Shown piece by piece: positions 1,422 to 48,235 of a DNA stretch of 48,275 nt; the stretch's first letter is position 1, and each line of letters begins with the position of its first letter. A program made the position numbers and the translations under genes. Origin of the DNA: Candidatus Omnitrophota bacterium (GTDB lineage Bacteria > Omnitrophota > Gorgyraeia > Gygaellales > Profunditerraquicolaceae); the NCBI GenBank assembly GCA_043802105.1, contig JAZDLL010000014.1, positions 1-48,275 on the forward strand, in the 5' to 3' direction. Under the pieces are notes generated by a model that saw only the letters and a program-made list of their open reading frames with translations, was not told the origin of the DNA and did not search any database.

Positions 1422-1799
1422 TTATGAGATTTTTTTACGCAGATCTTCAGGAATGGCTTGCGGCTTCAAAGTCTTATCAACACAGACCAGAATGGTTTTA
1501 GCTTTAATAATTAACCGCTTATTTTGATTGTAGATTTCATGTAAAAACTCGATACTCACACCGGTTATCTCTCCGACTTGAGTTTGAATATCCAGCTCAT
1601 CGCCATAAGCGGCCGGAAACTTATAATCTATCTCCTGGCGCGAGACCACAAACATAATCCCCGAATCAGACAGCTGCTTAATGGAAGCGTTTTTAAGCGC
1701 AAAATACTCCGTGCGCGCCTCCTCTAGGAAATTAAGATAATTGGCGTAATAAACTACTCCTCCGCAATCCGTATGATGGTAATAAATGCGCTGTTTCAT
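1422..1799 (-). CDS. Acyl-CoA thioesterase, 4HBT/YbgC hotdog-fold family
   Basis: 125 aa. Contains YYHHTDCGGVVYYANYLNFLEEARTEYF, the YbgC/4HBT motif (D..G.V.H..Y), and has the short hotdog length. Confidence 0.8.
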   Translation of the reverse strand: MKQRIYYHHTDCGGVVYYANYLNFLEEARTEYFALKNASIKQLSDSGIMFVVSRQEIDYKFPAAYGDELDIQTQVGEITGVSIEFLHEIYNQNKRLIIKAKTILVCVDKTLKPQAIPEDLRKKIS

Positions 1800-1817
1800 A
1801 TATTTTCAAATATATCT

Positions 1818-3071: not shown

Positions 3072-3795
3072 TAAGCTTAATAAAGCTAACTACAGCAATG
3101 GCCGCCGTATCTACACGCAGAACCTGCTTACCAAGGCTCACCGGCAGAAAACCCGCTGCTTTGGCCAGGGCAATCTCTTGGAGGGTAAAATCACCTTCCG
3201 GACCGATGAGCACCATTATTTTCTTAAGTTGACGGGTCGTTTGATTAAAAATATTTTTGAGAGTTTCTCTCTCTGCCTCCAATGTCGGAATTAATTTTAA
3301 ATCGAAATCCTGCCGGTTGGCAATGGCATCCTTAAAATCAGTTACCGGCTCAATCAGTACAAATTTACTGCGCTGGCTCTGTTTAACCGCACTTTCGGCA
3401 ATCTTCTCCCAGCGCTGGAAACGCTGGATCTTTTTTTGCTTATCTAATTTAACGATTACCCGTTCGGTCTGCAGCGGAATTATACAGGCCACCCCTAATT
3501 GCGTAAGCTTATCAATGATATCATCCATTTTTACTTTTTTAGGAATGGCGCAAGCCACGGTAATTTCAATATCCAAATCATTAGGCGGCCTTTTTTCTTT
3601 TATTTCTAGCCGGGCACCGCTTGAGCCAATCTCTAGAACTTGCGTCACATATTCATTCCCGTCATGGTCAAAAACCGCCACCTTATCTTTGGGCCGAGCT
3701 CTTAACACATCCTTTAAATGGTGCAGCTGGGCGGCATCATTTAAAATAATAATTTTATCGGTTAGATCAATCTTTTCAATCCAGAAACGATTCAC
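3058..3795 (-). CDS. rsmE: 16S rRNA (uracil1498-N3)-methyltransferase RsmE
   Basis: 245 aa. PUA-like N-terminus (RFWIE...HHLKDVLRAR) and a SPOUT C-terminus (VLIGPEGDFTLQEIALAKAAGF..VSLGKQVLRVDTAAI). The start codon is GTG (plus cac at 3793-3795). Confidence 0.85.
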   Translation of the reverse strand: MNRFWIEKIDLTDKIIILNDAAQLHHLKDVLRARPKDKVAVFDHDGNEYVTQVLEIGSSGARLEIKEKRPPNDLDIEITVACAIPKKVKMDDIIDKLTQLGVACIIPLQTERVIVKLDKQKKIQRFQRWEKIAESAVKQSQRSKFVLIEPVTDFKDAIANRQDFDLKLIPTLEAERETLKNIFNQTTRQLKKIMVLIGPEGDFTLQEIALAKAAGFLPVSLGKQVLRVDTAAIAVVSFIKLNADH

Positions 3796-5288
3796 TATTT
3801 TTTTGCTCCTTTTTCAGAAAAAACTTCCGCGCTAAAGATATAAAGCTGAGTATCCTTATCTTTCCAGGCATTGGCGGCCAGACCGGCTTTATGGGCACAG
3901 AGATTATTCAAAAACTCTTCTTTACTCCAGCCGGTTTCCGTGGCTACCTGAGGAAGGAATACCCCGCTCTGACTGCCGCGGCGCACCAATACTCCATGTT
4001 TTCCTAATTCAATCTTTTCGGCAGAAGGCACTTTTTCTAATGGAGACAAAACAGAGATCTCAATTTCTACGTCCTTAAGTTCCGGCAAAGTAAGCGCCGA
4101 AAACCGCGGGTCATCCACTGCCGCTTCAATCGCCATATCGCGCACAGTCAGATAAAGAGGCTGGCTTCCGATGAGATTTCCGATACACCCTCTTAACTCC
4201 TGATGTTGATTAAGTGTGACAAAAGCACCACTCTTTTGATTTAATACCAAGTCAGATTCAGAAACCGGCAGTTTTTTACCGGTTTCCAGATACATCGCAA
4301 TAGATTGGCGCGCAATCTGTAAAAGCTTTTCTTTTTGCCAAGTGGTCAACATGTTTTCTCCTCCCTGCCTAAAAACTGCGCAACTGGCATAACCCACTGT
4401 CCACTCCCCTTTAACTAACTTACCCGTGACTATTGCGGAATTCGTATGATTGAGCACTTCTAACCTTAACATCCCTAATTCTTTAGCAATATTTAAGGCC
4501 ACCACAGTAGCAAATCCTCCACAGGCTTGGGCGCTGCCATCACGCAAAGCATAATACAGCCCCTGGTAATCCATTTTTTTGATTAAATCCAAAGTCAGCC
4601 CATCCACCTCCAGCGCTTCTTTAAAATCATAGCCGTGATACAGATCCGTAGATACTATCAGCAGGACATCTTGGCGTTGGCCAATCGCTTCTTTAAACAA
4701 AAGTACAATTTTTTTACATGCCTCCAGCGAACAATCCCCCACTACTACCGGAACAATTTTAAAATCAGTTAATGCTTTCTGCAAAAAAGGCAACTGTACT
4801 TCTACGGAGTGCTCATTATTGAACGCAGAAGGATTCTCAAAAACTTCAGGATACTTACCCAGAATACTTTTTGTGAATTTCTCATCAACATCAACTTTGC
4901 CTAAACTAGTAGCAAAACTTCCTGCTCCATAAAGAGCAGCTCCGTTAAAAACCTGATGATGGCTAGTCCCCATAATGATTACGGTTTTATAGCTCTTACC
5001 TTTTATAAGTTTGTACCCAAAAGCTGCAGTCTGGCCGGAAAAACCGTAACCCGCGTGCGGGCTAACCAGCATAAAGATCTCATCGGAGGTTTGATCAGGC
5101 GCTGCATTTTCTAACAAATTATCCACCATCCCCGATAGTTCTTCTTTGCCGGCTGGATAAAACTGTCCGCCAAATTCCGGCTGCTTAATCAAAGCCGCAG
5201 AGCAGTTTAGATACGCCAAAAAGATAAAAATATGAATGAAGGGGATAATTTTATAAGGCATTGAATAAATCTTTAGTTTTGACAGCAT
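3795..5288 (-). CDS. Fusion of a Memo-like domain (AmmeMemoRadiSam protein B) and an AMMECR1 domain (protein A), with a hydrophobic N-terminal leader
   Basis: The N-terminal half has GGQFYPAGKEEL...LVSPHAGYGFSGQTAAFGY...STDLYHGY (Memo/extradiol-dioxygenase-like). The C-terminal half has GAFVTLNQHQELRGCIGN...DDPRFSAL...ISVLSPLE...GVLVRRGSQSGVFLPQV (AMMECR1). Residues about 10-32 are hydrophobic (IIPFIHIFIFLAYLNCSAA). Confidence 0.8.
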   Translation of the reverse strand: MLSKLKIYSMPYKIIPFIHIFIFLAYLNCSAALIKQPEFGGQFYPAGKEELSGMVDNLLENAAPDQTSDEIFMLVSPHAGYGFSGQTAAFGYKLIKGKSYKTVIIMGTSHHQVFNGAALYGAGSFATSLGKVDVDEKFTKSILGKYPEVFENPSAFNNEHSVEVQLPFLQKALTDFKIVPVVVGDCSLEACKKIVLLFKEAIGQRQDVLLIVSTDLYHGYDFKEALEVDGLTLDLIKKMDYQGLYYALRDGSAQACGGFATVVALNIAKELGMLRLEVLNHTNSAIVTGKLVKGEWTVGYASCAVFRQGGENMLTTWQKEKLLQIARQSIAMYLETGKKLPVSESDLVLNQKSGAFVTLNQHQELRGCIGNLIGSQPLYLTVRDMAIEAAVDDPRFSALTLPELKDVEIEISVLSPLEKVPSAEKIELGKHGVLVRRGSQSGVFLPQVATETGWSKEEFLNNLCAHKAGLAANAWKDKDTQLYIFSAEVFSEKGAKK

Positions 5289-5390
5289 CTCAAGGCGCTA
5301 ATAACTAGTGGCACTACGCTCGCTACGGCGTCCCTGAAGAGATTCCCTTTGGTCACTTGTCGTGCCGTTTTACGCTCGCTCTAGTATCCC

Positions 5391-5417
5391 AAAAAATTTA
5401 CTTGTCGTAAATTTTTT
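5391..5417 (-). terminator. AT-rich hairpin directly after tRNA-Ala (possible terminator)
   Basis: The minus strand reads AAAAAATTTAC-GACAA-GTAAATTTTTT, an 11-bp stem whose 3' arm is a T-run. It starts 1 nt after the tRNA 3' end. Confidence 0.4.
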
Positions 5418-5418
5418 G

Positions 5419-5491
5419 TGGAGCTGAGGAGGATCGAACTCCTGGCCCCCTCGTTGCGAACGAGGTGCTCTCCCAACTGAGCTACAGCCCC
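5419..5491 (-). tRNA. tRNA-Ala (anticodon CGC)
   Basis: The minus strand reads GGGGCTGTAGCTCAGTTGGGAGAGCACCTCGTTCGCAACGAGGGGGCCAGGAGTTCGATCCTCCTCAGCTCCA. It folds as a cloverleaf with anticodon loop TTCGCAA. It has the G3:U70 alanine identity pair and a GTTCGATCC T-arm. CCA is not encoded. Confidence 0.95.
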
Positions 5492-5537
5492 AATTTTATC
5501 TAACTACTTGATTTTCTAATAATTAAGTAATTTAAGT

Positions 5538-5744
5538 TTATTTTTTTTCATGCAGTTGTTCTAATATTAAAACCAGAAGATACAGGGCAATCGAACAAAA
5601 TAATCCTTTGGCCAGAAAATACCATGATATTGCGTCATTTGTAAATTTACCCTTAAAGAATTCATTTCCCAGCAGAAAAGTATAAACACATATTGATAAC
5701 ACCGTAACTGCAGCAAACATAACCGCCAGCTTTAGTTTTTTCAT
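5538..5744 (-). CDS. Small membrane protein (2 TM), unknown function
   Basis: I trimmed the track ORF 5538..5822 to the ATG at 5744, which is preceded by GAGGAGGAAAG. The upstream extension overlaps repeat R1 and a promoter-like module. The protein starts MKKLKLAVMFAAVTVLSICVY and has a second TM, LFCSIALYLLVLIL. Confidence 0.55.
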   Translation of the reverse strand: MKKLKLAVMFAAVTVLSICVYTFLLGNEFFKGKFTNDAISWYFLAKGLFCSIALYLLVLILEQLHEKK

Positions 5745-5806
5745 CTTTCCTCCTCTTTTCTGTTTTGTCCCAACGAAACCCACTGAATTGTATTCTATCA
5801 CAAATT

Positions 5807-5853
5807 CCAAAATTGTAAGCAAACAAAAAGGGCTAAACGATTAAGTCCAGCCC
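5807..5853 (-). terminator. Repeat R1: conserved Rho-independent terminator module after the ferritin-like gene
   Basis: The minus strand reads GGGCTGGAC-TTAATC-GTTTAGCCC-TTTTTGTTTGCTTACAATTTTGG, a 9-bp stem (including G-U pairs) followed by a T-run. The same module recurs at 6457-6489 and 6786-6832. Confidence 0.6.
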
Positions 5854-5886
5854 AACAGGATATAAGGATTTTACTTAAGCACTCTT

Positions 5887-6330
5887 TTATTTGATAGCAT
5901 ACTTAAGCCATAGTTCTTGAATTTCTTCCCTGTGTCTTTTAGTATCTTGTTCTATCTTAGCAAAAGCATTCTTAATAGTGGGTGAATCACTAGGTATAAC
6001 TTTAAAAAAATATCTCTCAATTAAACTATGCTCGATGTCTCTAGCCATAGATAAAGCATTTATTAAAGTGGAGTTTTCAGCCTTTTGTATTAAATCCTTT
6101 ACAAAAGACATTGTAAGCTCTATGGCCTCTATACTAAATCTATCTTCTTGAAAAAAAGAAGGAGTTTCTTGCTTTATTAACCGCACACTTTCTAATAATT
6201 CAGCGTGTACGTTCTCCTCGGCTGCTTTTTGGAGCCAAAATTCCTTCACTTCAGGAAATTTCTCAGCGTAGATAGTATACAATTTACTAACTAATCTCTC
6301 GTTTTCACTTAACAATCTTAGGCTATCCAT
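5887..6330 (-). CDS. Ferritin-like / rubrerythrin-like four-helix-bundle protein (tentative)
   Basis: 147 aa, predicted all-helical. It has EENVHAE and RDIEHSLIE motifs reminiscent of the ExxH diiron ligands of the ferritin-like superfamily. RBS AAAAGGGG lies upstream of the ATG. Confidence 0.45.
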   Translation of the reverse strand: MDSLRLLSENERLVSKLYTIYAEKFPEVKEFWLQKAAEENVHAELLESVRLIKQETPSFFQEDRFSIEAIELTMSFVKDLIQKAENSTLINALSMARDIEHSLIERYFFKVIPSDSPTIKNAFAKIEQDTKRHREEIQELWLKYAIK

Positions 6331-6456
6331 CGCTACCCCTTTTCTTCTAAACTGAATCTTTTGTTATTTTACCACAAATCCAAAGATTTTACAGTGCTAA
6401 GTAACCATGCGGGACTCCTGAGAATACTAAAATTTACAGATCTAGAGAAGCTGTGG

Positions 6457-6489
6457 AAACAAAAAGGGCTGAACGGTTAAGTCCAACCC
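6457..6489 (-). terminator. Repeat R2: second copy of the terminator module
   Basis: The minus strand reads GGGTTGGAC-TTAACC-GTTCAGCCC-TTTTTGTTTCC. The stem is maintained despite substitutions relative to R1 and R3. Confidence 0.55.
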
Positions 6490-6514
6490 AGTGGTAGTAA
6501 AAGTAGGAAAAGTT

Positions 6515-6730
6515 TTAATCCTTAATGTAAAACTTCCATTTCTTTAACTGCTTGATATAAAGGCTTCTCTGTAATTGCGGAAAATTTAGCCAATAATCTG
6601 ATAGCATCTTATCTTTTCCTGTCCTATTTCTATTGCCAGAGCCTCTTTTATTCATCTCTTTACCTTTTAGAATATCAAATGTGCAATAAAATTTATCATA
6701 TGTGCATAACCATTTCAATACCATTTGCAA
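6515..6730 (-). CDS. Hypothetical small basic protein (weak call)
   Basis: This is the only ORF of 60 aa or more between terminator copies R3 and R2. It has no recognisable family and no convincing RBS. It is kept only because its position mirrors the neighbouring cassettes. Confidence 0.25.
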   Translation of the reverse strand: MQMVLKWLCTYDKFYCTFDILKGKEMNKRGSGNRNRTGKDKMLSDYWLNFPQLQRSLYIKQLKKWKFYIKD

Positions 6731-6785
6731 CCAGTTTTGAAAGCGTTTTCATAAACATACAATCGTTACAATGCGAGCTAAAATA

Positions 6786-6832
6786 CCAAAATTGTAAGCA
6801 AACAAAAAGGGCTAGACGATTAAGTCCAGCCC
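6786..6832 (-). terminator. Repeat R3: third copy of the terminator module, after the 185-aa TPR gene
   Basis: The minus strand reads GGGCTGGAC-TTAATC-GTCTAGCCC-TTTTTGTTTGCTTACAATTTTGG. It is near-identical to R1, including the 14-nt tail. Confidence 0.6.
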
Positions 6833-6856
6833 TTAATAGGGGTGAATAAAATTAAC

Positions 6857-7414
6857 CTACTTATCCCTTCCGGATGCTTCCTTAAGTGCAGCCAGAAATT
6901 CAGGATTAATCGTCGCTCCTAATCCTTCTGCCTCATACACGTCTAACCAGGCCTGGCCATAATCCTTGATCATAAAATAGGTAAACCCGCGATTATAGTA
7001 GGCCAGTGCATAATTAGGGTCTAAGTCAATGGCTTTGTTATAGTCAGCTATGGCTTGAACAAAGTTTCTTTGATTCCCATAAAGAGTGCCCAGATTATGA
7101 TTAGCCTGCCCGCGGTTGTTGTAGGCCGCTGCAAAGTTAGGGTCTAGGGCAATGGCTTTAGTATAGTCAGCTATGGCTTGAATAAAATTGTGTAGCCTGA
7201 AATAGACAAGCCCGCGGTTGTTGTAGGCCGCGGCATAATCAGGTTTTATGGCAATGGCTTTGGTATAGTTAGCTATGGCTTGAGGTAAATTACCTTGATT
7301 GTAGGAAACACACCCATGAGTAAAATATTCTTCTGCGGTTTCTGCATAAACAGAAGACGCACTTAAACATACCACTCCTATCAAAATAAAGATAATTAGC
7401 TTATAGTTTTGCAT
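6857..7414 (-). CDS. Secreted TPR-repeat protein, last gene of the pilus string (possible PilF/PilW-like pilotin)
   Basis: Signal peptide MQNYKLIIFILIGVVCLSASSVYA, then four repeats of the type AIADYTKAIALDPNFAAAYNNRG (canonical TPR). Confidence 0.7.
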   Translation of the reverse strand: MQNYKLIIFILIGVVCLSASSVYAETAEEYFTHGCVSYNQGNLPQAIANYTKAIAIKPDYAAAYNNRGLVYFRLHNFIQAIADYTKAIALDPNFAAAYNNRGQANHNLGTLYGNQRNFVQAIADYNKAIDLDPNYALAYYNRGFTYFMIKDYGQAWLDVYEAEGLGATINPEFLAALKEASGRDK

Positions 7415-7483
7415 CCTCGTTTTTGTTCACCTTTTGTTTTTCCCAAATAAAACTCTTTATCAAGCAGGGTAAAAGAATAAAAC

Positions 7484-8215
7484 TTAAGATGAAGAAGAGC
7501 TGTTGCAGATAATCTTAGTCTTGGCTTCCACCTGAGGATTTACCAGCTTTCCTGAATCAACAGGTTTGGTAGGATCATAGCGACCGACCAAGCCAATCTT
7601 TACCAAGTTGCCTTGATCAACAAGTGGGCTCCCTTGATCATCTATTTCCACATAAAAACCTTTATCAGGATTAACGGGCATCACGCCGTTATAAAAACCA
7701 CTAATAATTTTAGTACTCAATACTTCAGCTTCCGGAACCGCATCCGACCTGCAGCTTAAACTTGTTACGCAATCAGCACCCAGACCAGTCTGGCAGCCAA
7801 CGCTAAGATCATTGCCTGAAAGAGTATAGTAGATCCAAACATCATTGGTTAAATCTGAAGGAGTTTGTGCTTGGGCATCCGCTAGGGTACCGCAATCAAA
7901 CCTAACCTGAAAACCCGTCGGACTTATAGAACTCGGGTATAATTTTATAGGTGGATTACTTACATTTCCGTTTGCCCGCGATATATATTTACTCATATGC
8001 TCTAAACAGTAAGCTAACTGATTTTGCACCTTGGCCCTTTTATCCGCATCAATTACCTGAGTATTAGTAAATGTTTCAAAACCGTAAAACCCCACAATTA
8101 AAAGGCCCACAATCATAATACTCACCAATAACTCAACTAAGGTGAGCGCTTTAGCGTTTTTAGGCCCATAAGCTTTAAAAAACTTAATTCCGCTTAACTG
8201 CATCTTTATATTCAT
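7484..8215 (-). CDS. Prepilin-type N-terminal domain protein (minor pseudopilin)
   Basis: KALTLVELLVSIMIVGLLIVGF is a class III signal and hydrophobic helix with Glu at +5. The exact start within MNIKMQLSG... is uncertain. Confidence 0.7.
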   Translation of the reverse strand: MNIKMQLSGIKFFKAYGPKNAKALTLVELLVSIMIVGLLIVGFYGFETFTNTQVIDADKRAKVQNQLAYCLEHMSKYISRANGNVSNPPIKLYPSSISPTGFQVRFDCGTLADAQAQTPSDLTNDVWIYYTLSGNDLSVGCQTGLGADCVTSLSCRSDAVPEAEVLSTKIISGFYNGVMPVNPDKGFYVEIDDQGSPLVDQGNLVKIGLVGRYDPTKPVDSGKLVNPQVEAKTKIICNSSSSS

Positions 8216-8222
8216 TTAGATT

Positions 8223-8660
8223 TTAAAGGGATGGTTCTGTCCAGGAAACTTTGGTGACAACCCGGCGTAAATCCGTACCGGCTATAGCTGTAGCGCGGAC
8301 TCCATCATATATTTCGTACTCAGCAGAAAAAAAACTATTATTAATCTTTCGCTCAGCGCTGGGAGGACAATTTTTATTTTGCGTGTGCCCACCCACACTA
8401 TCGCAATAAACAGGAAAACCTGGGGCGGTAAGGGTAAGCGCGTTGCTTGCCACTCCCGCTGCCCAGGTATCTGCGCGCACATCCATTTGTAAGGGGTCAA
8501 TAAAAAGCTTGCCAATTTCCGCGCTCATCATGCGTTCACGAGAATGCAGGATTTGCCCCTTAGCGGCAATAAAAACACTAACCAATCCCAACATAACCAG
8601 GGAAAAAATAGCCGACGCCACCAAAATTTCAACCAGTGAAAATCCCTTTTTATTACGCAT
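8223..8660 (-). CDS. Prepilin-type minor pseudopilin (PilV/GspI-like)
   Basis: MRNKKGFSLVEILVASAIFSLVMLGLV is a canonical G|FSLVE prepilin cleavage/methylation motif. Confidence 0.75.
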   Translation of the reverse strand: MRNKKGFSLVEILVASAIFSLVMLGLVSVFIAAKGQILHSRERMMSAEIGKLFIDPLQMDVRADTWAAGVASNALTLTAPGFPVYCDSVGGHTQNKNCPPSAERKINNSFFSAEYEIYDGVRATAIAGTDLRRVVTKVSWTEPSL

Positions 8661-8663
8661 ATT

Positions 8664-9074
8664 TTACGGGCAGGCTGCGGAACCAGAACAAACAGCCTTG
8701 TCTCCCGGAAAATTAATTGTCCATTGCCTTCCATCTGCGCCAACACCGGTGCGCGTAGCGGTACTGTGTTCAACAGTATTACCGTCTAAATCCATGGTCC
8801 ACATCCGGGTAGCACTTTCAGGCAAGCTTAACTTCAAAAAACTATTAATATTGGCAATCACGTTAGTAGTAGTCAGATACGGATAATAATATCCCTGTTC
8901 CATTTTGTAAATCTTTTCAGCTGCCCGAATAAGCGCCAAGCTGGCGTTAGCTTCCTTATTCAAGGCCTTTTCTTTAATCGCCGAGTAATTGGGCCAAGCC
9001 AAAGCCGCTAAAGTACCGATAATCACCACGACCACTAGTATTTCCGCTAAAGTAAAGCCTCTTGTCTTAAACAT
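8664..9074 (-). CDS. Type IV pilin-like protein / GspG-like pseudopilin
   Basis: MFKTRGFTLAEILVVVVIIGTLAALAWPNY is a prepilin motif. A C-terminal Cys pair (CSGSAAC) resembles the pilin D-region. Confidence 0.75.
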   Translation of the reverse strand: MFKTRGFTLAEILVVVVIIGTLAALAWPNYSAIKEKALNKEANASLALIRAAEKIYKMEQGYYYPYLTTTNVIANINSFLKLSLPESATRMWTMDLDGNTVEHSTATRTGVGADGRQWTINFPGDKAVCSGSAACP

Positions 9075-9090
9075 AAATTAGCTTCCTTCT

Positions 9091-9492
9091 TTAGTACCCC
9101 GCAGTTCCGCCCCAGGAACCATTAATAGCCAAAGTTTTAGTATAGCCGCCAGTCATCGACGGTAGTTTTCCGCCAGAGGTACACCTGGTAGCTGTACATA
9201 GGCCATCAGCAGTTGCACAACTGTAAGAGAAATAATGCGCAGTGCCTGTACAGTCAGTGGGAGCACCTACGCCTAAGTTGGCCACTGTTGCATAAGTCCC
9301 ATCTTCAAAGTAATCGGCAACTTCGGCACCTCTTAAGGTACCCAAGATCATCCTGGCTTCCGCCGCCCGGCTTTTTTCTACTACCTTATTATATTGGGTT
9401 AAACCGATCGACGCCAATATCCCAACGATGATAACCACGATAACTAATTCTACAAGCGTAAAACCTTTTATCCTGGACATCATATAGATCAA
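9091..9492 (-). CDS. Type IV major pilin, paralog 2
   Basis: SRIKGFTLVELVIVVIIVGILASIGLTQYNKVVEKSRAAEA is a prepilin motif followed by the alpha1 helix. The C-terminal globular part is Cys-rich. It is a tandem duplicate of 9502..9885. Confidence 0.8.
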   Translation of the reverse strand: MIYMMSRIKGFTLVELVIVVIIVGILASIGLTQYNKVVEKSRAAEARMILGTLRGAEVADYFEDGTYATVANLGVGAPTDCTGTAHYFSYSCATADGLCTATRCTSGGKLPSMTGGYTKTLAINGSWGGTAGY

Positions 9493-9501
9493 CTTCTTTC
9501 T

Positions 9502-9885
9502 TTAGTACCCTGCAGTCCCGCCCCAGGCACCATTAATAGCCAAAGTTTTATTATAGCCGCCAGTCATCGACGGTAGTTTTCCGCCAGAGGTACACCTGGT
9601 AGCTGTACATAGGCCATCAGCAGTTGCACAACTGTAAGAGAAATAATGCGAAGTGCCTGTACAGTCAACTGGAGCTCCTACGGCTAGGTTAGCTACTGTA
9701 ACATAAGCACCATTTTCATTAAACTCGGCAATTTCAGCGGTTCTACACGTACCCAAGATCATCCTGGCTTCCGCCGCCCGGCTTTTTTCTACTACCTTAT
9801 TATATTGGGTTAAACCAATCGACGCCAATATCCCAACGATGATGACCACGATAACTAATTCTACAAGCGTAAAACCTTTTCTCAT
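9502..9885 (-). CDS. Type IV major pilin, paralog 1
   Basis: MRKGFTLVELVIVVIIVGILASIGLTQYNKVVEKSRAAEA. It has a strong RBS (AAGGAGGAG) and its own promoter-like TTGACA/TATAAT just upstream. Confidence 0.85.
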   Translation of the reverse strand: MRKGFTLVELVIVVIIVGILASIGLTQYNKVVEKSRAAEARMILGTCRTAEIAEFNENGAYVTVANLAVGAPVDCTGTSHYFSYSCATADGLCTATRCTSGGKLPSMTGGYNKTLAINGAWGGTAGY

Positions 9886-9939
9886 CTTACTCCTCCTTAT
9901 ATTATCATATTATCCAAATTCAACCACTCTTGCTAATAA

Positions 9940-9969
9940 ATTATAACACTTATTTTCAATCATTGTCAA
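9940..9969 (-). promoter_or_regulatory. Sigma70-like promoter for the pilin genes
   Basis: The minus strand has TTGACA (9969-9964), an 18-nt spacer and TATAAT (9945-9940). It lies between the pilC stop and the pilin start. Confidence 0.5.
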
Positions 9970-9972
9970 TAA

Positions 9973-11211
9973 TTATCCTGAAATTTTCGCCAGCTCAAAT
10001 ATAGGTAAAAACATCCCTAAGACCATCACCCCGATAATCCCACCGATAAAAATCAAAACAAACGGTTCAAATATAGAAACAAACCGCGTAAGGAAAGTAT
10101 CGCAATACTCCTGATAGAAAGAATTGATCCTTTTAAACATCTGGGGAAGCTCTCCGATCTCTTCTCCAATACTGACCATTTGGATAACCATGGGTTCAAA
10201 AAAACCGCTGCGTTCAAGGGAATCCCGCATCGGCTTACCATCCCGCACATCATCCTTAATTTTACGAATAATATCCGCCATGATAAGATTATTCACGCTG
10301 CGCCCGGATATTTCCAAAGAATAAAGAATCGGAACTCCCGATTCTAAAAGAGTAGCCATTTCCGATGAAAATTTTTCTATATTAAACGCCAGGAAAAATT
10401 CTCCAAAAAGCGGTAACTTAAATTGAAGTTTTTCAAAGTTTAATCTGCCGCCCTTAGTATGTAAGTACTGGCGAAAAAGAAAAATACCTACCCCGATAAA
10501 AAAAAGTAACAGAAAAATATTTTTTTTAAGAAAATCACTGATGTTCACCAACACCTGGGTAAGCCAGGGCAAGCTAATATTAAAACTTTTAAATATTTCC
10601 GCAAATGAAGGTATTATTTTTAACGACAAGAATAACAGGGCACCAAACCCCGCACAGGTTAAAATTATCGGATAGACTAATGCCGAGATTACCTTATTTC
10701 TAAACTGCGCTTCTTTTTCTAAATAGGCGGCCAGCCGATTTAACACCACGGCAAGATTGCCGCTGGCCTCCCCGCTTTCCACAAGATTAATCCAAAGATC
10801 GGAAAAAATTCTAGGATGGGCAGCCAAGGCTTCATGAAAACTTAGGCCCGCCTCCATACTCTTTTTCAAATCCAGGCTTACATTATAAAGCTTCCTACTG
10901 GCTACCTGTTTAGAAATAATCTCCAGGCTTTTGAGTATGGTTACCCCGGCTCCGATTAAAGTCGATAGCTGCCGGCAATAAAGCATCAGATCTTGGCTAG
11001 TCACCCTGCTATGCTTAGGCTTAAATCTAATTTTTACAAAGGTGTCGGCGGAAGAATCACCAAAGACCTCCGATCCTTCGGGTATAACATTGACTACGAT
11101 TAATCCTTTGGATTGAACTTTGGTTATTGCATCTTCTTGAGTTAAAGCTTCCTCAATCCCGGTTTCCTTAACACCCGCGCGATTCCTGGCAATATAATAA
11201 AACTTAGGCAT
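9973..11211 (-). CDS. pilC: Type IV pilus / T2SS platform protein, GspF/PilC family
   Basis: 412 aa with two GspF-type repeats (LSTLIGAGVTILKSLEI... and LATLLESGVPILYSLEI...) and three TM segments. Confidence 0.9.
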   Translation of the reverse strand: MPKFYYIARNRAGVKETGIEEALTQEDAITKVQSKGLIVVNVIPEGSEVFGDSSADTFVKIRFKPKHSRVTSQDLMLYCRQLSTLIGAGVTILKSLEIISKQVASRKLYNVSLDLKKSMEAGLSFHEALAAHPRIFSDLWINLVESGEASGNLAVVLNRLAAYLEKEAQFRNKVISALVYPIILTCAGFGALLFLSLKIIPSFAEIFKSFNISLPWLTQVLVNISDFLKKNIFLLLFFIGVGIFLFRQYLHTKGGRLNFEKLQFKLPLFGEFFLAFNIEKFSSEMATLLESGVPILYSLEISGRSVNNLIMADIIRKIKDDVRDGKPMRDSLERSGFFEPMVIQMVSIGEEIGELPQMFKRINSFYQEYCDTFLTRFVSIFEPFVLIFIGGIIGVMVLGMFLPIFELAKISG

Positions 11212-12926
11212 TATTCTGCTCCCATGGTAGTGGAAATAATTTCTTCCAGAGAAGTTATGCCGCTTTCTACCTTTTTAATCCCTGATTCATAAAGCGTTTG
11301 CATCCCCGAGGCTCTGGCTACTTCGCGTATCTTTTGGAAAGAAGCTCTTTGATTAATTAAATCCTGGATTTCCAAAGTAATGGGCAGAACTTCCACGATA
11401 CAGGTCCGACCCTTATATCCGGCACTATTGCACTTTGGGCATCCTTTGGGGCCATAAATTAGCTCCGCTTTTATCGCCGCGCCCTTAATCTGAGCGCTCG
11501 TCGGCTCATAAGCTACTTTACAGTCCGGACATAATTTACGCACCAGCCGTTGAGCAATAATCGCCAACAAAGAAGGCGCCAGCATATACGGTTCAATTCC
11601 GATATCCATCAGCCGGCTTACCGCCGAAGGTGCATCATTAGTATGCAGGGTACTTAAAACTAAGTGCCCGGTAAGCGCTGAACGAATGCATATCTGGGCG
11701 GTTTCCAAATCCCTAATCTCTCCGACCAGCATGATATCCGGATCCTGCCGCAAAAAACTACGCAAAGCTGCGGCAAAGGTCAGCCCAATTTCCGGCTTGA
11801 CCTGTACCTGATTAATCTCGTCCATCTTATATTCAACCGGATCTTCTACGGAAACAATATTTTTAGATGGGCCCTTTATTTCATTTAGAATAGCATAAAG
11901 CGAAGTAGATTTGCCGCTTCCGGTCGGGCCGGTAATTAAAACTAATCCGTAAGGAGCAAAAATTGCCTTGCGGACATGTTCAAGCTGAGGTCCATCGAAT
12001 CCCAAATAGTCCAAATTCAGGGTAACCCCACCGCGGTCTAAGATTCGCAGGACCGCCTTTTCTCCGTAAATAGTCGGAATCATAGAAACGCGAATATCTA
12101 TCGGGCGATCGTCAATCCTCACTAAAATCGCACCATCCTGAGGTAATCGCTTCTCCGCAATATCAAGTTTAGCTAGAATCTTTACGCGGGAGACCAGCGG
12201 TAAATGCAAGTGTTTAGCCGGCGGAGGTATCTCATAAAGCTTGCCGTCAATTCTATAGCGCAATGAAATTCTATCTTTAAAGGGTTCAATATGTATATCT
12301 GAAGCCCGCTCTCCAATAGCCTGGCGAATAATTAAATCCACTAATTTTACCACCGGGGCTTCTTCTGCCCGGGCAATCAACTTGTCCAAACTAAGTTCCT
12401 GCCCTAGATCCTCGTTTTTTTGAGTGAAGGAAGAATCTATATCATAACTAGAATCAACTACATCCTTAAGCATCGAAGATTTGCCATAGAATTCTTCAAT
12501 GGCTTTTAAAATATCCGAACGCGTAGCAATCACCGGATTGATTTCACTTCCGGTTAACTTTCTAAGGCTATCGATCAGAAGAATATCCAGAGGATCGGAC
12601 AAAACAACCGTTAAAGACCTAAGCATGCGGGAAAGAGGTAAAACAGCGTTCTTAAAAGCAAACTCGTGGGGGATCAGATTGTCTAAACCCTGATCCATCG
12701 CCGGCTTGAGCATCCCGGTTCCCAATGAAAAATAGGGCATGTTCAGCTGCTTACATAGGGCGGCCAAAACCTGTTCTTCTTTAACCGCCCCCTGCTTGAT
12801 CAATATTTCGCCTAAGCGCCCGCCCTCCTGCCTTTGTGCGGTAACCGCTTTTTCCAGCTGGCTGGCAGTGATAATACCTTCTCTCAATAAAAAATCGCCT
12901 AATCTTAAATAGTTATCTTTTACCAT
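11211..12926 (-). CDS. pilB: Type IV pilus assembly ATPase, GspE/PilB family, with an N-terminal MshEN-type domain
   Basis: Walker A GPTGSGKST, Asp box, Walker B and His box (TGHLVLSTLHTN), and a tetracysteine CPDC...CPKC. The N-terminus carries two tandem RLGxx... motifs. Confidence 0.92.
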   Translation of the reverse strand: MVKDNYLRLGDFLLREGIITASQLEKAVTAQRQEGGRLGEILIKQGAVKEEQVLAALCKQLNMPYFSLGTGMLKPAMDQGLDNLIPHEFAFKNAVLPLSRMLRSLTVVLSDPLDILLIDSLRKLTGSEINPVIATRSDILKAIEEFYGKSSMLKDVVDSSYDIDSSFTQKNEDLGQELSLDKLIARAEEAPVVKLVDLIIRQAIGERASDIHIEPFKDRISLRYRIDGKLYEIPPPAKHLHLPLVSRVKILAKLDIAEKRLPQDGAILVRIDDRPIDIRVSMIPTIYGEKAVLRILDRGGVTLNLDYLGFDGPQLEHVRKAIFAPYGLVLITGPTGSGKSTSLYAILNEIKGPSKNIVSVEDPVEYKMDEINQVQVKPEIGLTFAAALRSFLRQDPDIMLVGEIRDLETAQICIRSALTGHLVLSTLHTNDAPSAVSRLMDIGIEPYMLAPSLLAIIAQRLVRKLCPDCKVAYEPTSAQIKGAAIKAELIYGPKGCPKCNSAGYKGRTCIVEVLPITLEIQDLINQRASFQKIREVARASGMQTLYESGIKKVESGITSLEEIISTTMGAE

Positions 12927-14439
12927 TAATGCTCTTATCGAATTTATTCATATTAGAATTAATTGCATAATCCCGGCTGGCTACTGAAACGCCCTGTTCT
13001 CTAATCGGCAGCTGGATATTTTGCAGTTGAGTCAATTTAACATCCATCTTATCCCTAATAATACGCGGAGTAATAAAAACTATTAGCTCGCGCTCAATTC
13101 CTTCGGTTTGCTCTTTGTGCCTAAAAAGGAGGCCCAGCAAAGGAATATCTCCCAAGATCGGTATTTTCCTTATAGCAACCTTACTATCATGATGAATAAG
13201 ACCGCCTAAAATTACGGTTTCTCCGTCTTTAACCTTAACAATCGATTTCGTACTTCTTACTTCCACATTGGCCTGCTGATTAGTGAGAGTACTTAATTCG
13301 CTGATACTGGTAACGCTTGATTTTGGATAAAGTACCATGGTAATCTCGTTAGTGTCTAAATTAATTTGCGGGGTTACCCGAAGGAAAATCCCGGTTCCCT
13401 CTTTAGTCAGTTGCAGATCTGTCGATCTTTTAAATATACTAGTGGTGGTTGTGCCGCTAGTCGTTATATTTACCGTATCTTCCCTACCCACTATTTCATC
13501 TTTGGTAATCGCAATCTCGGCGGACTCATTATTTAAAGTAAGCAGCTTAGGCCGGGCTAAAAATTTAGTATCGGTATCTGTTCTCATTAAATCCAACTGC
13601 ATATCATATCCATCGCCGGGATTAATAGAGAGTAACCCTTTGCCCACATCCATAACCTTGCTCCAATCACCATAAGGATACCCCAGAGAGGCGGTAGCCC
13701 CGGTTACAACCGCAGTAAAAGGCGTATCGCCGAATCTAAGCCCCATTTTATCTACCATCGCCTTGCTTACATCCAGCATCTCCACCTCCAGCATTACCTG
13801 TGGCACAGCTACATCCAATGAGGCAATTACCTGGGTGATCACTTTCATTCTCATGGGTGTATCCGTAACAATAAGACTGTTAGTCCGAAAATCTTCCATC
13901 ATCGAACCTACGCTGGAAAGCAATTTTTTAACTGCGCTAGAAATCCCGCCTTCAACTTCCTCTTTAAACTTACTCCGGGTGCTGGCCACCGAACCGCTGC
14001 TCACAATGCTTATAGATTTAGCTAATTCGTCTTTTAAAGAGGCGGTGGAAACCGTAGCGTTTTTCAGATAAAAAACTTTAGTTACCGTTTCAGTGCCCAT
14101 CATTCCCCACTCTTTAACCACAAAAATATTCGCTTCGCTGTCTAGCTCGTAAGAAAGATTGTTGGCGCTAAAGATCTTATCCATCGCTTGGCTCAAGGGG
14201 ACTTTATCCAGATAAAGAGTAATCTTTCTATCCTGCACCGCTTCGGAGGAAATAAAGTTCATTCCCGCCTGCATAGAAAATACCTTTAGGATATCTTTGA
14301 GGTTAGCATCTTTAAAGTCCATGGAGATAGTCGGCTCCGAGCCGGCCAACGGAGGCAGTTCCTCAGCATTTAACCGCGCAATAAAAAAAGCAAACATTAA
14401 AAGAAAAATAGCCACGGTAGTTACAAATATTTTTTTCAT
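12913..14439 (-). CDS. pilQ: Secretin (PilQ/GspD family outer-membrane channel)
   Basis: Signal peptide and N-domains. The C-terminal secretin signature is VILGGLIHHDSKVAIRKIPILGDIPLLGLLFRHKEQTEGIERELIVFITPRII. Confidence 0.9.
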   Translation of the reverse strand: MKKIFVTTVAIFLLMFAFFIARLNAEELPPLAGSEPTISMDFKDANLKDILKVFSMQAGMNFISSEAVQDRKITLYLDKVPLSQAMDKIFSANNLSYELDSEANIFVVKEWGMMGTETVTKVFYLKNATVSTASLKDELAKSISIVSSGSVASTRSKFKEEVEGGISSAVKKLLSSVGSMMEDFRTNSLIVTDTPMRMKVITQVIASLDVAVPQVMLEVEMLDVSKAMVDKMGLRFGDTPFTAVVTGATASLGYPYGDWSKVMDVGKGLLSINPGDGYDMQLDLMRTDTDTKFLARPKLLTLNNESAEIAITKDEIVGREDTVNITTSGTTTTSIFKRSTDLQLTKEGTGIFLRVTPQINLDTNEITMVLYPKSSVTSISELSTLTNQQANVEVRSTKSIVKVKDGETVILGGLIHHDSKVAIRKIPILGDIPLLGLLFRHKEQTEGIERELIVFITPRIIRDKMDVKLTQLQNIQLPIREQGVSVASRDYAINSNMNKFDKSINGKR

Positions 14440-14473
14440 TTAATTCCTCCTTTAAGTTTCATCCAGCATAATT

Positions 14474-14887
14474 TTATCGGGGAGCAGGTAAATCAAATAC
14501 CGCTCCATAATAACTTAGAGTAATTCCTTTTTTCTCTATACTGACAATTTGAGCGCCTTCAATTAAATCGCCGATCGTCAAAACCTTATCATTAATAATT
14601 GCTTGGGGAATCTTGGCTCCCCAGATTATTCCTTGCACTTTAAGCTTATTTAGATCAAATTCCGGCCTGCTTAAATCCGTGCTCTCCGGCAAAACTTCTT
14701 TAATTTCTTCTTTTATAAAATATGTTTTAAAAGGGTCGCGTAATTTACCAGATTTATATTCTACTACCGGACGCACAATCAACCCCTCGGGGGTAACAAC
14801 TTCTTCTGCCCAAGCCAGGGGGTTCTGCCCGATTAAGCCGGCTAGCAAAAAAACAAGTAGTATATTTTTACATTTTCTGCTCATCAT
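14474..14887 (-). CDS. PilP-like / GspC HR-domain-like periplasmic protein
   Basis: Signal peptide. The C-terminal beta-rich block is LKVQGIIWGAKIPQAIINDKVLTIGDLIEGAQIVSIEKKGITL. It sits between PilO and the secretin, as PilP does. Confidence 0.5.
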   Translation of the reverse strand: MMSRKCKNILLVFLLAGLIGQNPLAWAEEVVTPEGLIVRPVVEYKSGKLRDPFKTYFIKEEIKEVLPESTDLSRPEFDLNKLKVQGIIWGAKIPQAIINDKVLTIGDLIEGAQIVSIEKKGITLSYYGAVFDLPAPR

Positions 14888-15457
14888 TTATAAGTAAGCG
14901 ATAGTGTTAATTTTTAAAGTAACGTTCAAATCAACATCCGCGGCTGCTGGATTAACCTCCGTGGCTGTTGAACGAAGATTAGTAGGTTCTGTATTAGCAT
15001 TAGCTGTTGAGGAATTAATTTTAACCTCACTAACCAAGCAAATATCCTGATTATTCTCAATTTTGCTAATAAAATCGCCCAGAGCGTGATAGCTAGGGGC
15101 ATTCAAAGTGATTAAAAACGAAGAGTTAAAGTAGTTCTCCATCGCTTCCTCAGTGTTGGGTTTTACAGAAATAATCTTAACGGAAGCGTTTTTAGCAATA
15201 CTGGATATAATATCCATAACCGAAGCCAAATCCTTTCTAACAAAAACTTTCTTGTAGACTTCAGCCTTATTCTCAAGGGAGGCAATTTCTTCAACTACTT
15301 TATTTTTCTCTAGCTCACTATTCTGTTGTTGGATTAAAGAGTTTACTTGATTACTAGAGGAGTTATAAAAATGCCAGGCAAGAATTAACGCCAGAATAAT
15401 TATTACGACATTCACAATTTTACTCTTATTCCTTTCAATTAAGCTGTAATTAATCAT
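14888..15457 (-). CDS. pilO: PilO-like pilus alignment protein
   Basis: Single N-terminal TM (VVIIILALILAW), a coiled-coil, then a ferredoxin-like C-terminal domain. It follows the PilM-PilN gene. Confidence 0.6.
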   Translation of the reverse strand: MINYSLIERNKSKIVNVVIIILALILAWHFYNSSSNQVNSLIQQQNSELEKNKVVEEIASLENKAEVYKKVFVRKDLASVMDIISSIAKNASVKIISVKPNTEEAMENYFNSSFLITLNAPSYHALGDFISKIENNQDICLVSEVKINSSTANANTEPTNLRSTATEVNPAAADVDLNVTLKINTIAYL

Positions 15458-15458
15458 G

Positions 15459-17012
15459 CTATTTATTCTCCGGAGAATTCTTGCAGGTAATTTTAAAGAC
15501 CGCTATATTTTTATTCTGCACATTCTTTTGATCAATAAAACCTATGGTAATTTCTTTAAAATAGCTGGAAAACACAGGATCTTTTTTTAAATTTGTAAGA
15601 AAAATATTTACCGACTCAAACTCCTGCTCGCTATTTCCAAGGTAAACCTGTCCATTAAGAACAAGCTCCATCGGCACTCCTTTGGTTTGGGTGAGATTGA
15701 AAGATTCCAGCCACACTCCTTTTGGCAAGGCGCGGGGAATACTACTAAGCAAAGGAGTAACATACATTTGATTTTTCACCAAATTATCTAACGCCGTAAT
15801 TTTCCTTTTAAATTTAGAGCTTACATTGGTCAGCTCTTGAAAATCATCACTAGCCAAAACAGTACTGATTTTTACGCGCTTATTTTTAATCGCCGCCAGT
15901 TCATCCTGCTTGGCTTGCGTACGCATAAACCCATGGCCAAAAACCGCTGCGCACACAACCAATCCTAAAAATATATACTTTAAATCTATTCTAACGCCTT
16001 CAAACAAAGCAAAGGGATTTCCAGCGGCCGCCGCGGCAGCCGCCCGAGTGGCTTTGAGCCTTGAACCAATCAGGTTTATTCTAATTTTAAGAGGCGCGGA
16101 CTTAAATAAAGCCACGGCATAACTTTTAACCAGAATCGATGAATAACTGACCGTCTTACCCAAAACTTTTTGAGTATCCACGAACTTAACCGGTATCGAT
16201 GTTTCCGCAAAAAAAGGTTTGAGCCCCGGATGACTCCCCTTATCTGAAACAACAAAAATATTTTTTACCTCTTTATCCGGAAACTTACGATTATAGTAAT
16301 CAAAAGAAATCCGGATTTCCTTTTTTAATTTATCCTGCTTTTGCGCCAGATCTGATTCAGCGGTCTGCTCAAACCCCGCTGGCTCTCCGGCAAAATCAAA
16401 ATCACGGCTAAACAAAGAAAATCCGTTTTCAAAAACTGTAAAGTTTGCTTCGTCTTCATTATTTAAATCAAAACAGAGGCTGGCCATTACTCCGGCGTCG
16501 CTTAAACCTGAAAGTTTTAAAAAACGTAAAACGCTAAAAGCTGAATATTCTAAAGCGTTAATCTTAAGATTAAGCTGCTTGGCAAAAGAAATATAATTAG
16601 CCAAAATTTCCTTTTTTATCCCCACAAAAAGAACCAGACTGGTTTTATTCTTCTTATTAAAAACCAGCTGAAAATCATAGTCCAGGTCCTCAAGTTTAAA
16701 AGGTATATATTTTTTCGCTTCAAAGCTAACCCCGCCCCTTAGTTCGCTCAGGGGCAAAAGCGGAATTTCAAAAGTGCGGATAACCAAATCCTGTCCGGAA
16801 ATACAAAAAGTAACTTCACCGGCATTTATCCGGTAGCTGCGAAAAGCATCTTTAAGTAAAGCCATTATTTTTACATCCGTAGGAACCTTCTCTTCTAATT
16901 CGGATATTTCCAACTTAGGGTGCGGCAGGCGAATATTGTTTAAGATCTTATTACCGCTAGTTTCTACCAGGTTAATATCCTTAATCCCAAAATATATACC
17001 TAAAGAATTCAT
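15459..17012 (-). CDS. pilM: PilM-PilN fusion protein (actin-like ATPase fold + TM + PilN-like periplasmic domain)
   Basis: The first roughly 320 aa resemble PilM/FtsA-like proteins. Then come a poly-Ala linker (RAAAAAAAGN), a TM helix (YIFLGLVVCAAVFGHGF), a coiled-coil and a PilN-like domain. 517 aa in a single ORF. Confidence 0.7.
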   Translation of the reverse strand: MNSLGIYFGIKDINLVETSGNKILNNIRLPHPKLEISELEEKVPTDVKIMALLKDAFRSYRINAGEVTFCISGQDLVIRTFEIPLLPLSELRGGVSFEAKKYIPFKLEDLDYDFQLVFNKKNKTSLVLFVGIKKEILANYISFAKQLNLKINALEYSAFSVLRFLKLSGLSDAGVMASLCFDLNNEDEANFTVFENGFSLFSRDFDFAGEPAGFEQTAESDLAQKQDKLKKEIRISFDYYNRKFPDKEVKNIFVVSDKGSHPGLKPFFAETSIPVKFVDTQKVLGKTVSYSSILVKSYAVALFKSAPLKIRINLIGSRLKATRAAAAAAAGNPFALFEGVRIDLKYIFLGLVVCAAVFGHGFMRTQAKQDELAAIKNKRVKISTVLASDDFQELTNVSSKFKRKITALDNLVKNQMYVTPLLSSIPRALPKGVWLESFNLTQTKGVPMELVLNGQVYLGNSEQEFESVNIFLTNLKKDPVFSSYFKEITIGFIDQKNVQNKNIAVFKITCKNSPENK

Positions 17013-17218
17013 GAGTTATCTCCCTCAAGCCGCGAAGGCGGCGTAGTCGTTTCGCGCTTCTTAGACCTTAACCAATTATCAATGTCCTTACGGTCAAACC
17101 TCCAAACTCCCCCCACCTTAATCCCGGAAATCTTACGTTGATTAAGCCAGTTATAGATAGTCTGCTTCTTTAATTTTAGGTACTCCGCCAATTCATCAAT
17201 ATCGATTAATCTTGACAT
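17009..17218 (-). CDS. Excisionase-family (MerR-like) helix-turn-helix DNA-binding protein
   Basis: IDELAEYLKLKKQTIYNWLNQRKISGIKVGGVWRFDRKDIDNWL matches the Xis-type HTH pattern (..y..i..G.ip..k.Gr.wrf....i..wl). Its stop overlaps the pilM start (ATGA). Confidence 0.75.
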   Translation of the reverse strand: MSRLIDIDELAEYLKLKKQTIYNWLNQRKISGIKVGGVWRFDRKDIDNWLRSKKRETTTPPSRLEGDNS

Positions 17219-35900: not shown

Positions 35901-35950
35901 CTTCGCTCCTTGCCCACAAGGGCACACCGCCGCAATTTCCTCCACAGGGA

Positions 35951-35986
35951 GGACACCGGCGCAATTCCAATAAGCGCCGGGTGCCT
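35951..35986 (+). repeat. Family A element, copy A2 (minimal version)
   Basis: GGACACCGGCGCAATT-CCAA-TAAGCGCCGGGTGCCT. The base stem is CACCGGCGC / GCGCCGGGTG with a bulged G. Small GC hairpins flank it (CCTCCACAGGGAGG, GCCCACAAGGGC), as does a direct-repeat half-copy ACACCGCCGCAATTTCC at 35926-35942. Confidence 0.6.
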
Positions 35987-36003
35987 GGTCAGCGCGGGGT
36001 GCC

Positions 36004-47894: not shown

Positions 47895-47916
47895 TCTTTT
47901 ATCCTCCTTGTGTACG

Positions 47917-48000
47917 GACACAACACCGGCGCAATTTTCGCCACGTGGCGAACGCTGGCCCAATACCTATCTGGGCCAAGCGCCTTAGCGCCGGGTGCCT
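47917..48000 (+). repeat. Family A element, copy A3 (expanded version)
   Basis: GGACACAACACCGGCGCAATT-[TTCGCCACGTGGCGAA][GCTGGCCCA-ATACCTATC-TGGGCCAAGC]-CTTAGCGCCGGGTGCCT. The base stem matches A2, with two extra hairpins inserted in the loop. Confidence 0.6.
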
Positions 48001-48053
48001 TTGCCCATCATATAAAATCCGAAAATATTAACAACCCAAGGCGGACCACGCAT

Positions 48054-48086
48054 AAAAAAAACCCCTATGCCAACTGCATAAGGGTT
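48054..48086 (-). terminator. Intrinsic terminator forming the expression platform of the TPP riboswitch
   Basis: The minus strand reads AACCCUUAUGC-AGUUG-GCAUAGGGG-UUUUUUUU, a 9-bp stem with one G-U pair followed by eight U. Confidence 0.7.
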
Positions 48087-48099
48087 AAAATGACTACAC

Positions 48100-48192
48100 A
48101 TCTTTTCCTCCGCTGGCATTATCCAGATCAGGTGATTAGGGTAATCTGCTCATTACGCAGAACTCTCAGGCCGCTTTAGCGACCTCCCCACT
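48100..48192 (-). promoter_or_regulatory. TPP (THI-box) riboswitch aptamer
   Basis: The minus strand reads AGUGGGGAGGUCGCUAAAGCGGCCUGAGAGUUCUGCGUAAUGAGCAGAUUACCCUAAUCACCUGAUCUGGAUAAUGCCAGCGGAGGAAAAG. It contains GGGG...CUGAGA...ACCC and the near-invariant ACCUGAUCUGGAUAAUGCCAGCG.AGG.AA block. P3 (GGUCGC/GCGGCC) and a P3a insert (UCUGC/GCAGA) are both base-paired. Confidence 0.9.
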
Positions 48193-48206
48193 AATTTATT
48201 TTCTGT

Positions 48207-48235
48207 ATTAAACCATGATTACCAATAATTGTCAA
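48207..48235 (-). promoter_or_regulatory. Sigma70-like promoter driving the TPP riboswitch
   Basis: The minus strand has TTGACA (48235-48230), a 17-nt spacer and TTTAAT (48212-48207). The aptamer begins about 15 nt downstream. Confidence 0.55.

Follow-up and report, generated by a model that had tools for sequence, protein, structure and literature searches.

The element at the end of the window, by which we mean the whole stretch of DNA that was analysed and which is a complete MAG contig of 48,275 bp, is already known in kind: it is a standard TPP riboswitch, and the control of thiazole-synthesis genes that it exerts in its lineage is a textbook arrangement. Judged by comparison of its sequence with that of relatives, the promoter-aptamer-terminator unit is a regular 5' leader belonging to a thiazole-synthesis gene of an Omnitrophota lineage, its native place being just downstream of feoB. 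In the window this native thi-gene leader is joined to acpP at a repeat. On circumstantial grounds we lean slightly towards reading the join as an assembly chimera, in which a short tip of the feoB-riboswitch locus was fused to the acpP contig and in which the riboswitch would be unrelated to acpP, fabF and the leu genes. Whether the join is a chimera or a real junction, the adjacency of riboswitch and acpP is no evolved arrangement.

The TPP aptamer (THI-box) that a preliminary description had placed on the minus strand was recovered by cmscan with RF00059, the match at 48200-48088 covering the full model (1-105) at 56.5 bits (gathering score 54.3) with an E value of 1.6e-8. The conserved CUGAGA and ACCUGAUCUGGAUAAUGCCAGCG cores as well as the P2-P3 and P4-P5 arms are present. 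For comparison, metagenomes were scanned with a 29-nt THI-box word, which yielded 120 loci, and 11 metagenome loci aligned with window positions 48236-48038 at 78-86% identity, from the promoter to the post-terminator motif GCGYGGYCCGCC. The sensor arms P2, P3, P3a and P4/5 were paired to 81.5-98.2% in 11 sequences and showed compensatory pairs in P3 (n = 1) and P3a (n = 3). Counting aptamer helices and terminator together, changes on both sides of a pair occurred at eight pairs in the 11 sequences; the covariation score was matched by no shuffle, and slid-register controls were paired to 38-49%, compared with the 85% observed. All 11 sequences carry a G after GCG instead of the usual U, which leaves the base of P4 with a G-G mismatch. 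Furthermore, no decay of the window riboswitch was detectable, as it has no private change at any position that is invariant in ten orthologues.

The first helix departs from this picture of well-paired arms. In the Rfam register P1 was paired to 30% across the 11 sequences, and it is this poor pairing that leaves the score of the window just over the threshold. Duplex folding gave, in most orthologues, an alternative weak AU-rich helix (-1 to -2.5 kcal/mol) in which the A-rich 5' leader pairs with the U-rich stretch ahead of the terminator, and that pairing is likely to be P1. A P1 so weak and AU-rich would explain why the scores of the family lie near the threshold, with seven of the 11 orthologues passing the RF00059 gathering score (54.6-65.4 bits) and four falling under it. 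The aptamer of locus L200, which is under the Rfam gathering score, has its variable P3a stem extended by an inserted G+C-rich palindrome of ~42 nt (TCCGCCACAAGCCGTGGCGGACCCGCCAAGATTTGTGGCGGGTG). The sole other Rfam match in the window was a tRNA gene at 5419-5491 on the minus strand (RF00005, 65.4 bits).

The aptamer is preceded by the promoter that had been proposed for it, a sigma-70-type element on the minus strand consisting of TTGACA (48235-48230), a 17-nt spacer and TTTAAT (48212-48207). It was read from the sequence and had been missed by our consensus promoter scanner because that program accepts a -10 hexamer only with A as its second base. TTGACA is aligned in ten of the 11 orthologous units, the sequence of L114 stopping short of that point, and -10-like hexamers (TTTAAT, TTAAAT, TCTAAT) are aligned in the orthologous units as well. 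From this promoter transcription would start near 48200. At the other side of the aptamer the terminator scan identified an intrinsic terminator (48086-48054, minus strand) composed of AACCCUUAUGC and GCAUAGGGGUU followed by a U run (U8), its stem at 48086-48060 containing 11 pairs, five of them G-C, ahead of the T run. This hairpin was 97.5% paired over the 11 orthologues, three of its pairs being compensatory, in keeping with the stem-plus-U8 terminator that the preliminary description had taken as the OFF platform.

The unit would be expected to act in the usual manner of its class, switching transcription OFF. Once TPP is bound, the aptamer would keep the GGGG strand (48189-48186) in P2, and the hairpin formed by AACCCUUAUGC and GCAUAGGGGUU together with its U run would stop transcription near 48054. 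If TPP is lacking, GGGG would pair instead with the CCCUU of the terminator 5' half (CCC at 48084-48082), and RNA polymerase would read into the thi gene. The terminator 5' half (AACCCUUAU) resembles the 3' strand of P2 (UUACCCUAAU), and in nine of 11 folds of a transcript ending before the terminator 3' half the CCCUU was paired with the invariant GGGG of P2. At the level of predicted structure, these folds suggest a strand-swap antiterminator (GGGG/CCCUU); duplex folding returned no conserved strong duplex between aptamer and terminator.

The gene that such a switch would serve becomes apparent from the orthologous units. Downstream of them we found thi4 in nine of the 11 loci and thiS-thiG-thiH in the other two, one of which contains thiF too, and in every orthologue an SD and the thi gene stood 25-250 nt past the unit. 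The Thi4 proteins of these loci match PF01946 with E values of 1e-67 to 5e-81, and their NCBI homologues are labelled as sulfide-dependent ADP-thiazole synthase of Candidatus Omnitrophota. Hence the unit occupies the position of a thiamine-gene leader in 11 of 11 orthologous loci; in the window it does not, the next gene being acpP. The missing cognate gene would most likely be thi4, coding for the sulfide-dependent ADP-thiazole synthase, and less likely thiS-thiG-thiH. In line with the earlier statement that the unit has no thiamine gene and that the next supportable ORF is acpP, tblastn with Thi4, ThiG, ThiF and FeoB gave no match in the window, and ThiH gave a weak radical-SAM match alone. 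The thiamine gene is missing after the aptamer because the locus switches at 47997-48010. Among the 19 Thi4 clusters that contain NCBI sequences, none held a Thi4 with an accession near that of the window FabF (MFH0917644). Thiamine biosynthesis is encoded by more than 75% of Omnitrophota species representatives (PMC10066038). For the phylum, 176 complete genomes are reported in a preprint of 2026. Literature on TPP riboswitches and Thi4 in bacteria and on Omnitrophota and thiamine offered nothing bearing on acpP. As an observation on the thi4 loci themselves, c-di-GMP-I or c-di-GMP-I-GGC riboswitches above gathering (60-65 bits) lie a short distance 3' of thi4 in L170 (1643-1723), L148 (8612-8690) and L162 (304-381).

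The upstream side of the unit is native, too. In three loci feoB lies just upstream of the riboswitch, its product ending in ...LLHFAVLR (L187), ...LNFLILR (L098) or ...LNFVILR (L200), and the FeoB Pfam domains were confirmed in the L187 protein. Translation of the window in frame at 48273-48250 (minus strand) gave the last seven codons of feoB with their stop codon (LHFAILR), cut by the contig end. Since the last 24 bases of the window thus encode the FeoB C-terminus as it occurs in L187, L098 and L200, the riboswitch has its native neighbour on the upstream side. In L162 this place before the riboswitch is taken by an ABC transporter and not by feoB.

Past the terminator, the remainder of the thi-gene 5' leader (48053-48005, minus strand) is homologous to the leaders of L162, L148, L098 and L147, the homology reaching 48038-48040 of the window by BLAST and extending by eye through GTTAATATTT. 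The conserved motif GCGYGGYCCGCC (48050-48039, minus strand) follows straight after the U run and takes the same position in all four of these leaders; a search for a covarying partner of this motif found none. In L162, L148, L098 and L147 the SD and the ATG of thi4 come next. The window leader is normal for ~50 nt past the terminator, and then the repeat and acpP stand where this SD and the thi4 start are expected, both of which are absent.

Within this leader region a 22-codon ORF (48053-47985, minus strand) had been pointed out before and left without support as a gene. The ORF exists, and we rejected it as a gene: its ATG is absent in L162, L098 and L147, that is in three of the four leaders with this region, and its 3' end lies inside the repeat. 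These same features weigh on the reading of the unit as a stand-alone TPP-sensing short transcript (sRNA) or as a regulator of the 22-codon ORF, for which the completeness of promoter, aptamer and terminator and the ATG after the U run would speak. However, every orthologue runs on into a thi gene with its SD at the distance given above, and with the ORF so poorly conserved we consider either version very improbable.

The genes on the far side of the repeat belong to a fab cluster. The first gene past the junction is acpP (47894-47658, minus strand), which has the SD AAGGAGG at 47909-47903 and encodes a product of 78 aa that is 100% identical on at least 24 other contigs; the Pfam domain PP-binding is recorded for the identical protein. 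It is followed on the same strand by fabF (47583-46342; identical to NCBI MFH0917644.1), leuC (46335-45076) and leuD (45079-44585), all taken from the ORF list, and by leuB (44615-43554), asd (43451-42423) and truA (42447-41686), which were assigned by their order in relatives. The window FabF leads to Candidatus Omnitrophota, the best species representatives being 87-89% identical. Its cluster record lists one contig, of 48,275 bp, which shows that the window is an entire contig. Ten contigs with a 100% identical AcpP all have the order recG-rsmD-coaD-yceD-rpmF-plsX-fabH-fabD-fabG-acpP-fabF-leuC-leuD-leuB-asd-truA, and relatives with 91% FabF identity show it as well, so that the series fabF-leuC-leuD-leuB-asd-truA given earlier for the window agrees with its relatives. 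The accompanying remark that no strong terminators follow acpP can be kept with a caveat. Between acpP and fabF there is a 14-pair hairpin (47634-47599, ACCCCGCAA...UUGCGGGGU), which occurs with one loop difference in L011 too and which may be a partial terminator or a processing site separating acpP from fabF.

What is missing in the window is everything before acpP. In Omnitrophota, fabG was found directly upstream of acpP in 80 of 80 informative copies, not all of them independent since some contigs were retrieved twice, 79 being detected by tblastn at a distance of 22-197 nt and one (L013) by the translated FabG C-terminus. Among these copies are the ten contigs with identical AcpP and the relatives with 91% FabF identity. 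The 11 other loci without fabG upstream of acpP came from non-Omnitrophota at the end of the match list, mostly cyanobacteria. In the window none of fabG, fabD, fabH and plsX was found, and the otherwise constant neighbourhood of fabG and acpP fails there. A regular-expression search for the THI-box pattern in the 80 fabF loci of relatives gave no true match; the riboswitch is therefore no conserved neighbour of the fab genes.

With these comparisons at hand, the suggested coupling of thiamine status to fatty-acid and leucine synthesis did not survive. An evolved control of the fatty-acid and leucine genes by TPP via the riboswitch would draw on the adjacency seen in one contig alone and on the region between terminator and acpP, in which no canonical promoter was found besides a promoter-like TTGTTA-16-TATGAT (48034-48007) with a 9/12 match. 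The arrangement, however, occurs in no relative, the riboswitch is orthologous to the leaders of thi4 and thiS, and the junction coincides exactly with a repeat and lies beside a contig end. We regard such control as hardly credible.

The repeat in question, listed before as A3, is a REP-like palindromic element at 47923-48000 that shares its terminal inverted repeats (ACACCGGCGCAATT / GCGCCGGGTGCC) with further, tandem copies at 35924-36003 and has internal palindromes besides. Weaker motif matches lie at 11171 and 23569. The terminal motifs occur five and three times in the window, compared with 0.37 and 0.18 expected from shuffles, and the motif density amounts to 3.4-7.4 per 100 kb in Omnitrophota loci as against 0.26 in unrelated THI-box loci. 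In relatives the family appears on both sides of the junction. On the fab side, the spacer between fabG and acpP of L087 has the same element in the same place, and compact forms are present in L212 and L213; the element before acpP is therefore ancestral, and it is fabG and all before it that are missing. On the thi side, L114 and L200 have members of the family after the terminator and ahead of thiS or thi4. A copy can thus be present at each of the two parental sites. In the fabG-acpP spacer the repeat varies among relatives in presence, size and orientation (27-nt versus 74-152-nt spacers), which on sequence grounds suggests that the family is mobile.

Two loci from the same JGI metagenome deserve mention here. 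L213 (Ga0182027_10015369) has the order fabH-fabD-fabG-REP-acpP-fabF with a FabF of 91% identity, and L162 (Ga0182027_10037763) is a thi4 locus, in which the terminator region of the riboswitch is the one most similar to that of the window and is followed by thi4. The two may come from one relative in which both loci are canonical. Apart from the REP-like family, the window contains direct repeats, namely a 300-nt pair (9073-9372 and 9484-9783, 88% identity, spaced 411 nt) and, at 6950-7300 and 5802-6832, three 126-nt units and three 52-nt units, the latter ending in a GGGCT...AGCCC hairpin; coding or intergenic, these resemble small genes that were duplicated and terminator-like units that recur.

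The position of the junction follows from the ends of the two homologies. Homology to the thi leaders stops at ~48005-48010, and homology to the fabG-acpP spacer starts at ~47996-48000; the fabF loci take up the window sequence at ~47913-47936, ~20-40 nt upstream of the acpP start, and L087 does so at ~47996. The switch of loci (~47997-48010) thus lies within ~13 nt of the outer edge of the REP-like element. From the contig end it is separated by 275 nt, the aptamer starting 75 nt from that end and everything upstream of acpP being contained in the last 380 nt. This bears on the proposal that the riboswitch is a relic whose thi gene was lost. One part of it stands, as the orthologous units do precede thi4 or thiSGH; the other does not, the riboswitch being undecayed and its gene missing through a locus switch at the repeat.

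REP- and BIME-type repeats are recombination substrates and a cause of assembly breaks, and for the window we favour the assembly chimera on the basis of the repeat family at both parental sites, the position 275 nt from the contig end and the undecayed riboswitch taken together. The 275 nt correspond to about one read-pair length, and no relative shows an interruption of the fab order. In the closest relative, L211 (FabF 96%), the contig has its start within this same REP terminus at 32 nt before acpP, which indicates that this site fragments assemblies. Structural artefacts also occur at the fab locus in such MAGs, as is evident from a related Omnitrophota MAG contig (JAPLLY010000056.1, containing L002 and L003), in which 15,676 nt (1540-17215) are 100% identical to their own reverse complement. 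This fold-back holds two inverted acpP-fabF copies, has 75-nt repeats (97% identical) flanking its centre and is almost certainly an assembly artefact.

Two properties of the repeats speak against a chimera. The visible REP copies share exact matches of 14-16 nt, which is under the k-mers of common assemblers, so that a mis-join in a de Bruijn graph would require two copies of unusual similarity; and the junction contains one copy of the element only, which is well formed. The limit of 16 nt on exact repeats argues at the same time for the alternative that the junction is real and very recent, REP recombination having moved acpP-fabF-leuCDB-asd-truA behind the native feoB-riboswitch leader. 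A deletion between REPs was rejected as the origin of such a junction, as it would remove the essential genes in rpmF-plsX-fabHDG, and so was a tandem duplication, which predicts feoB at the other contig end, where tblastn did not find it. A real junction therefore needs an inversion or a translocation. A single inversion, for which the two loci would have to lie on opposite strands, would join the REP of the thi leader to that of the fabG-acpP spacer, and its reciprocal product would be thi4 behind fabG. Inversion between repeat copies on opposite strands would yield exactly the observed product, REP copies are found in relatives at the one parental site as well as at the other, and the REP cluster at 35.9 kb posed no difficulty to the assembler.

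Should the junction be real, the riboswitch would be an accidental neighbour of acpP, whose transcription would come from read-through at low TPP or from the weak promoter-like site in the leader. That site lies 3' of the terminator and could drive acpP, but it matches in 9 of 12 positions and has no conserved counterpart in the orthologous leaders. With a real junction acpP, an essential and highly expressed gene, would be left without its operon promoter and behind a strong terminator. Moreover, a break between fabG and acpP is seen in none of the 80 Omnitrophota relatives, the contig stops 275 nt beyond the junction, which is unexpected for a fixed junction in unique sequence, and a riboswitch without any relaxation would require that the event be very recent. 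Taking both sides together, a real junction appears possible and somewhat doubtful. Its most far-reaching form, in which one Omnitrophota population has acpP-fabF-leuCDB-asd-truA dependent on read-through of the TPP terminator and thi4 unregulated behind fabG, we regard as improbable; if true, the read-through-dependent acpP block would be a natural case of riboswitch re-wiring via a repeat-mediated rearrangement. The gene-position index contained no exact match to the window FabF, LeuC or LeuD, to the junction-spanning 89-aa ORF or to P0001.

The apparent novelty of a thiamine sensor before fatty-acid genes vanishes on comparing relatives. The case calls for caution in general: an orphan riboswitch by an unexpected gene, near the end of a MAG contig and with a repeat in between, should be considered as a possible mis-join before a regulatory reading is attempted. 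A minor gain is the description of the Omnitrophota thi4/thiS leader family, whose weak P1 brings it to the edge of the Rfam threshold, and of the REP-like family in its leaders.

Among known systems, the unit is closest to the terminating type of RF00059 represented by the tenA and thiC leaders of Bacillus subtilis, with which it has in common the full-length model, an intrinsic terminator directly after the aptamer and, in the orthologues, thiamine genes downstream. It differs from that type in its weak AU-rich P1, its marginal score, the G-G mismatch at the base of P4 and the absence of the cognate gene from the contig. In a comparative genomic study of prokaryotic thiamine regulons, Rodionov and colleagues reportedly described in 2002 THI elements that precede genes for thiazole synthases of the thi4 type. 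The present family resembles these in that nine of its 11 orthologous units precede a Thi4-family gene (PF01946), whereas its position next to feoB and the frequent insertion of REP-like elements in the leader set the Omnitrophota units apart. The repeats themselves are similar to REP and BIME elements in being short (~35-80 nt), intergenic, bounded by terminal inverted repeats, multicopy and sometimes tandem (35924-36003), but they form a sequence family specific to this Omnitrophota group, and their part in the junction is a deduced one. Finally, compared with the canonical cluster rpmF-plsX-fabH-fabD-fabG-acpP-fabF, the relatives are identical in order and continue with leuC-leuD-leuB-asd-truA, whereas in the window all genes before acpP are absent and a thi leader takes their place.
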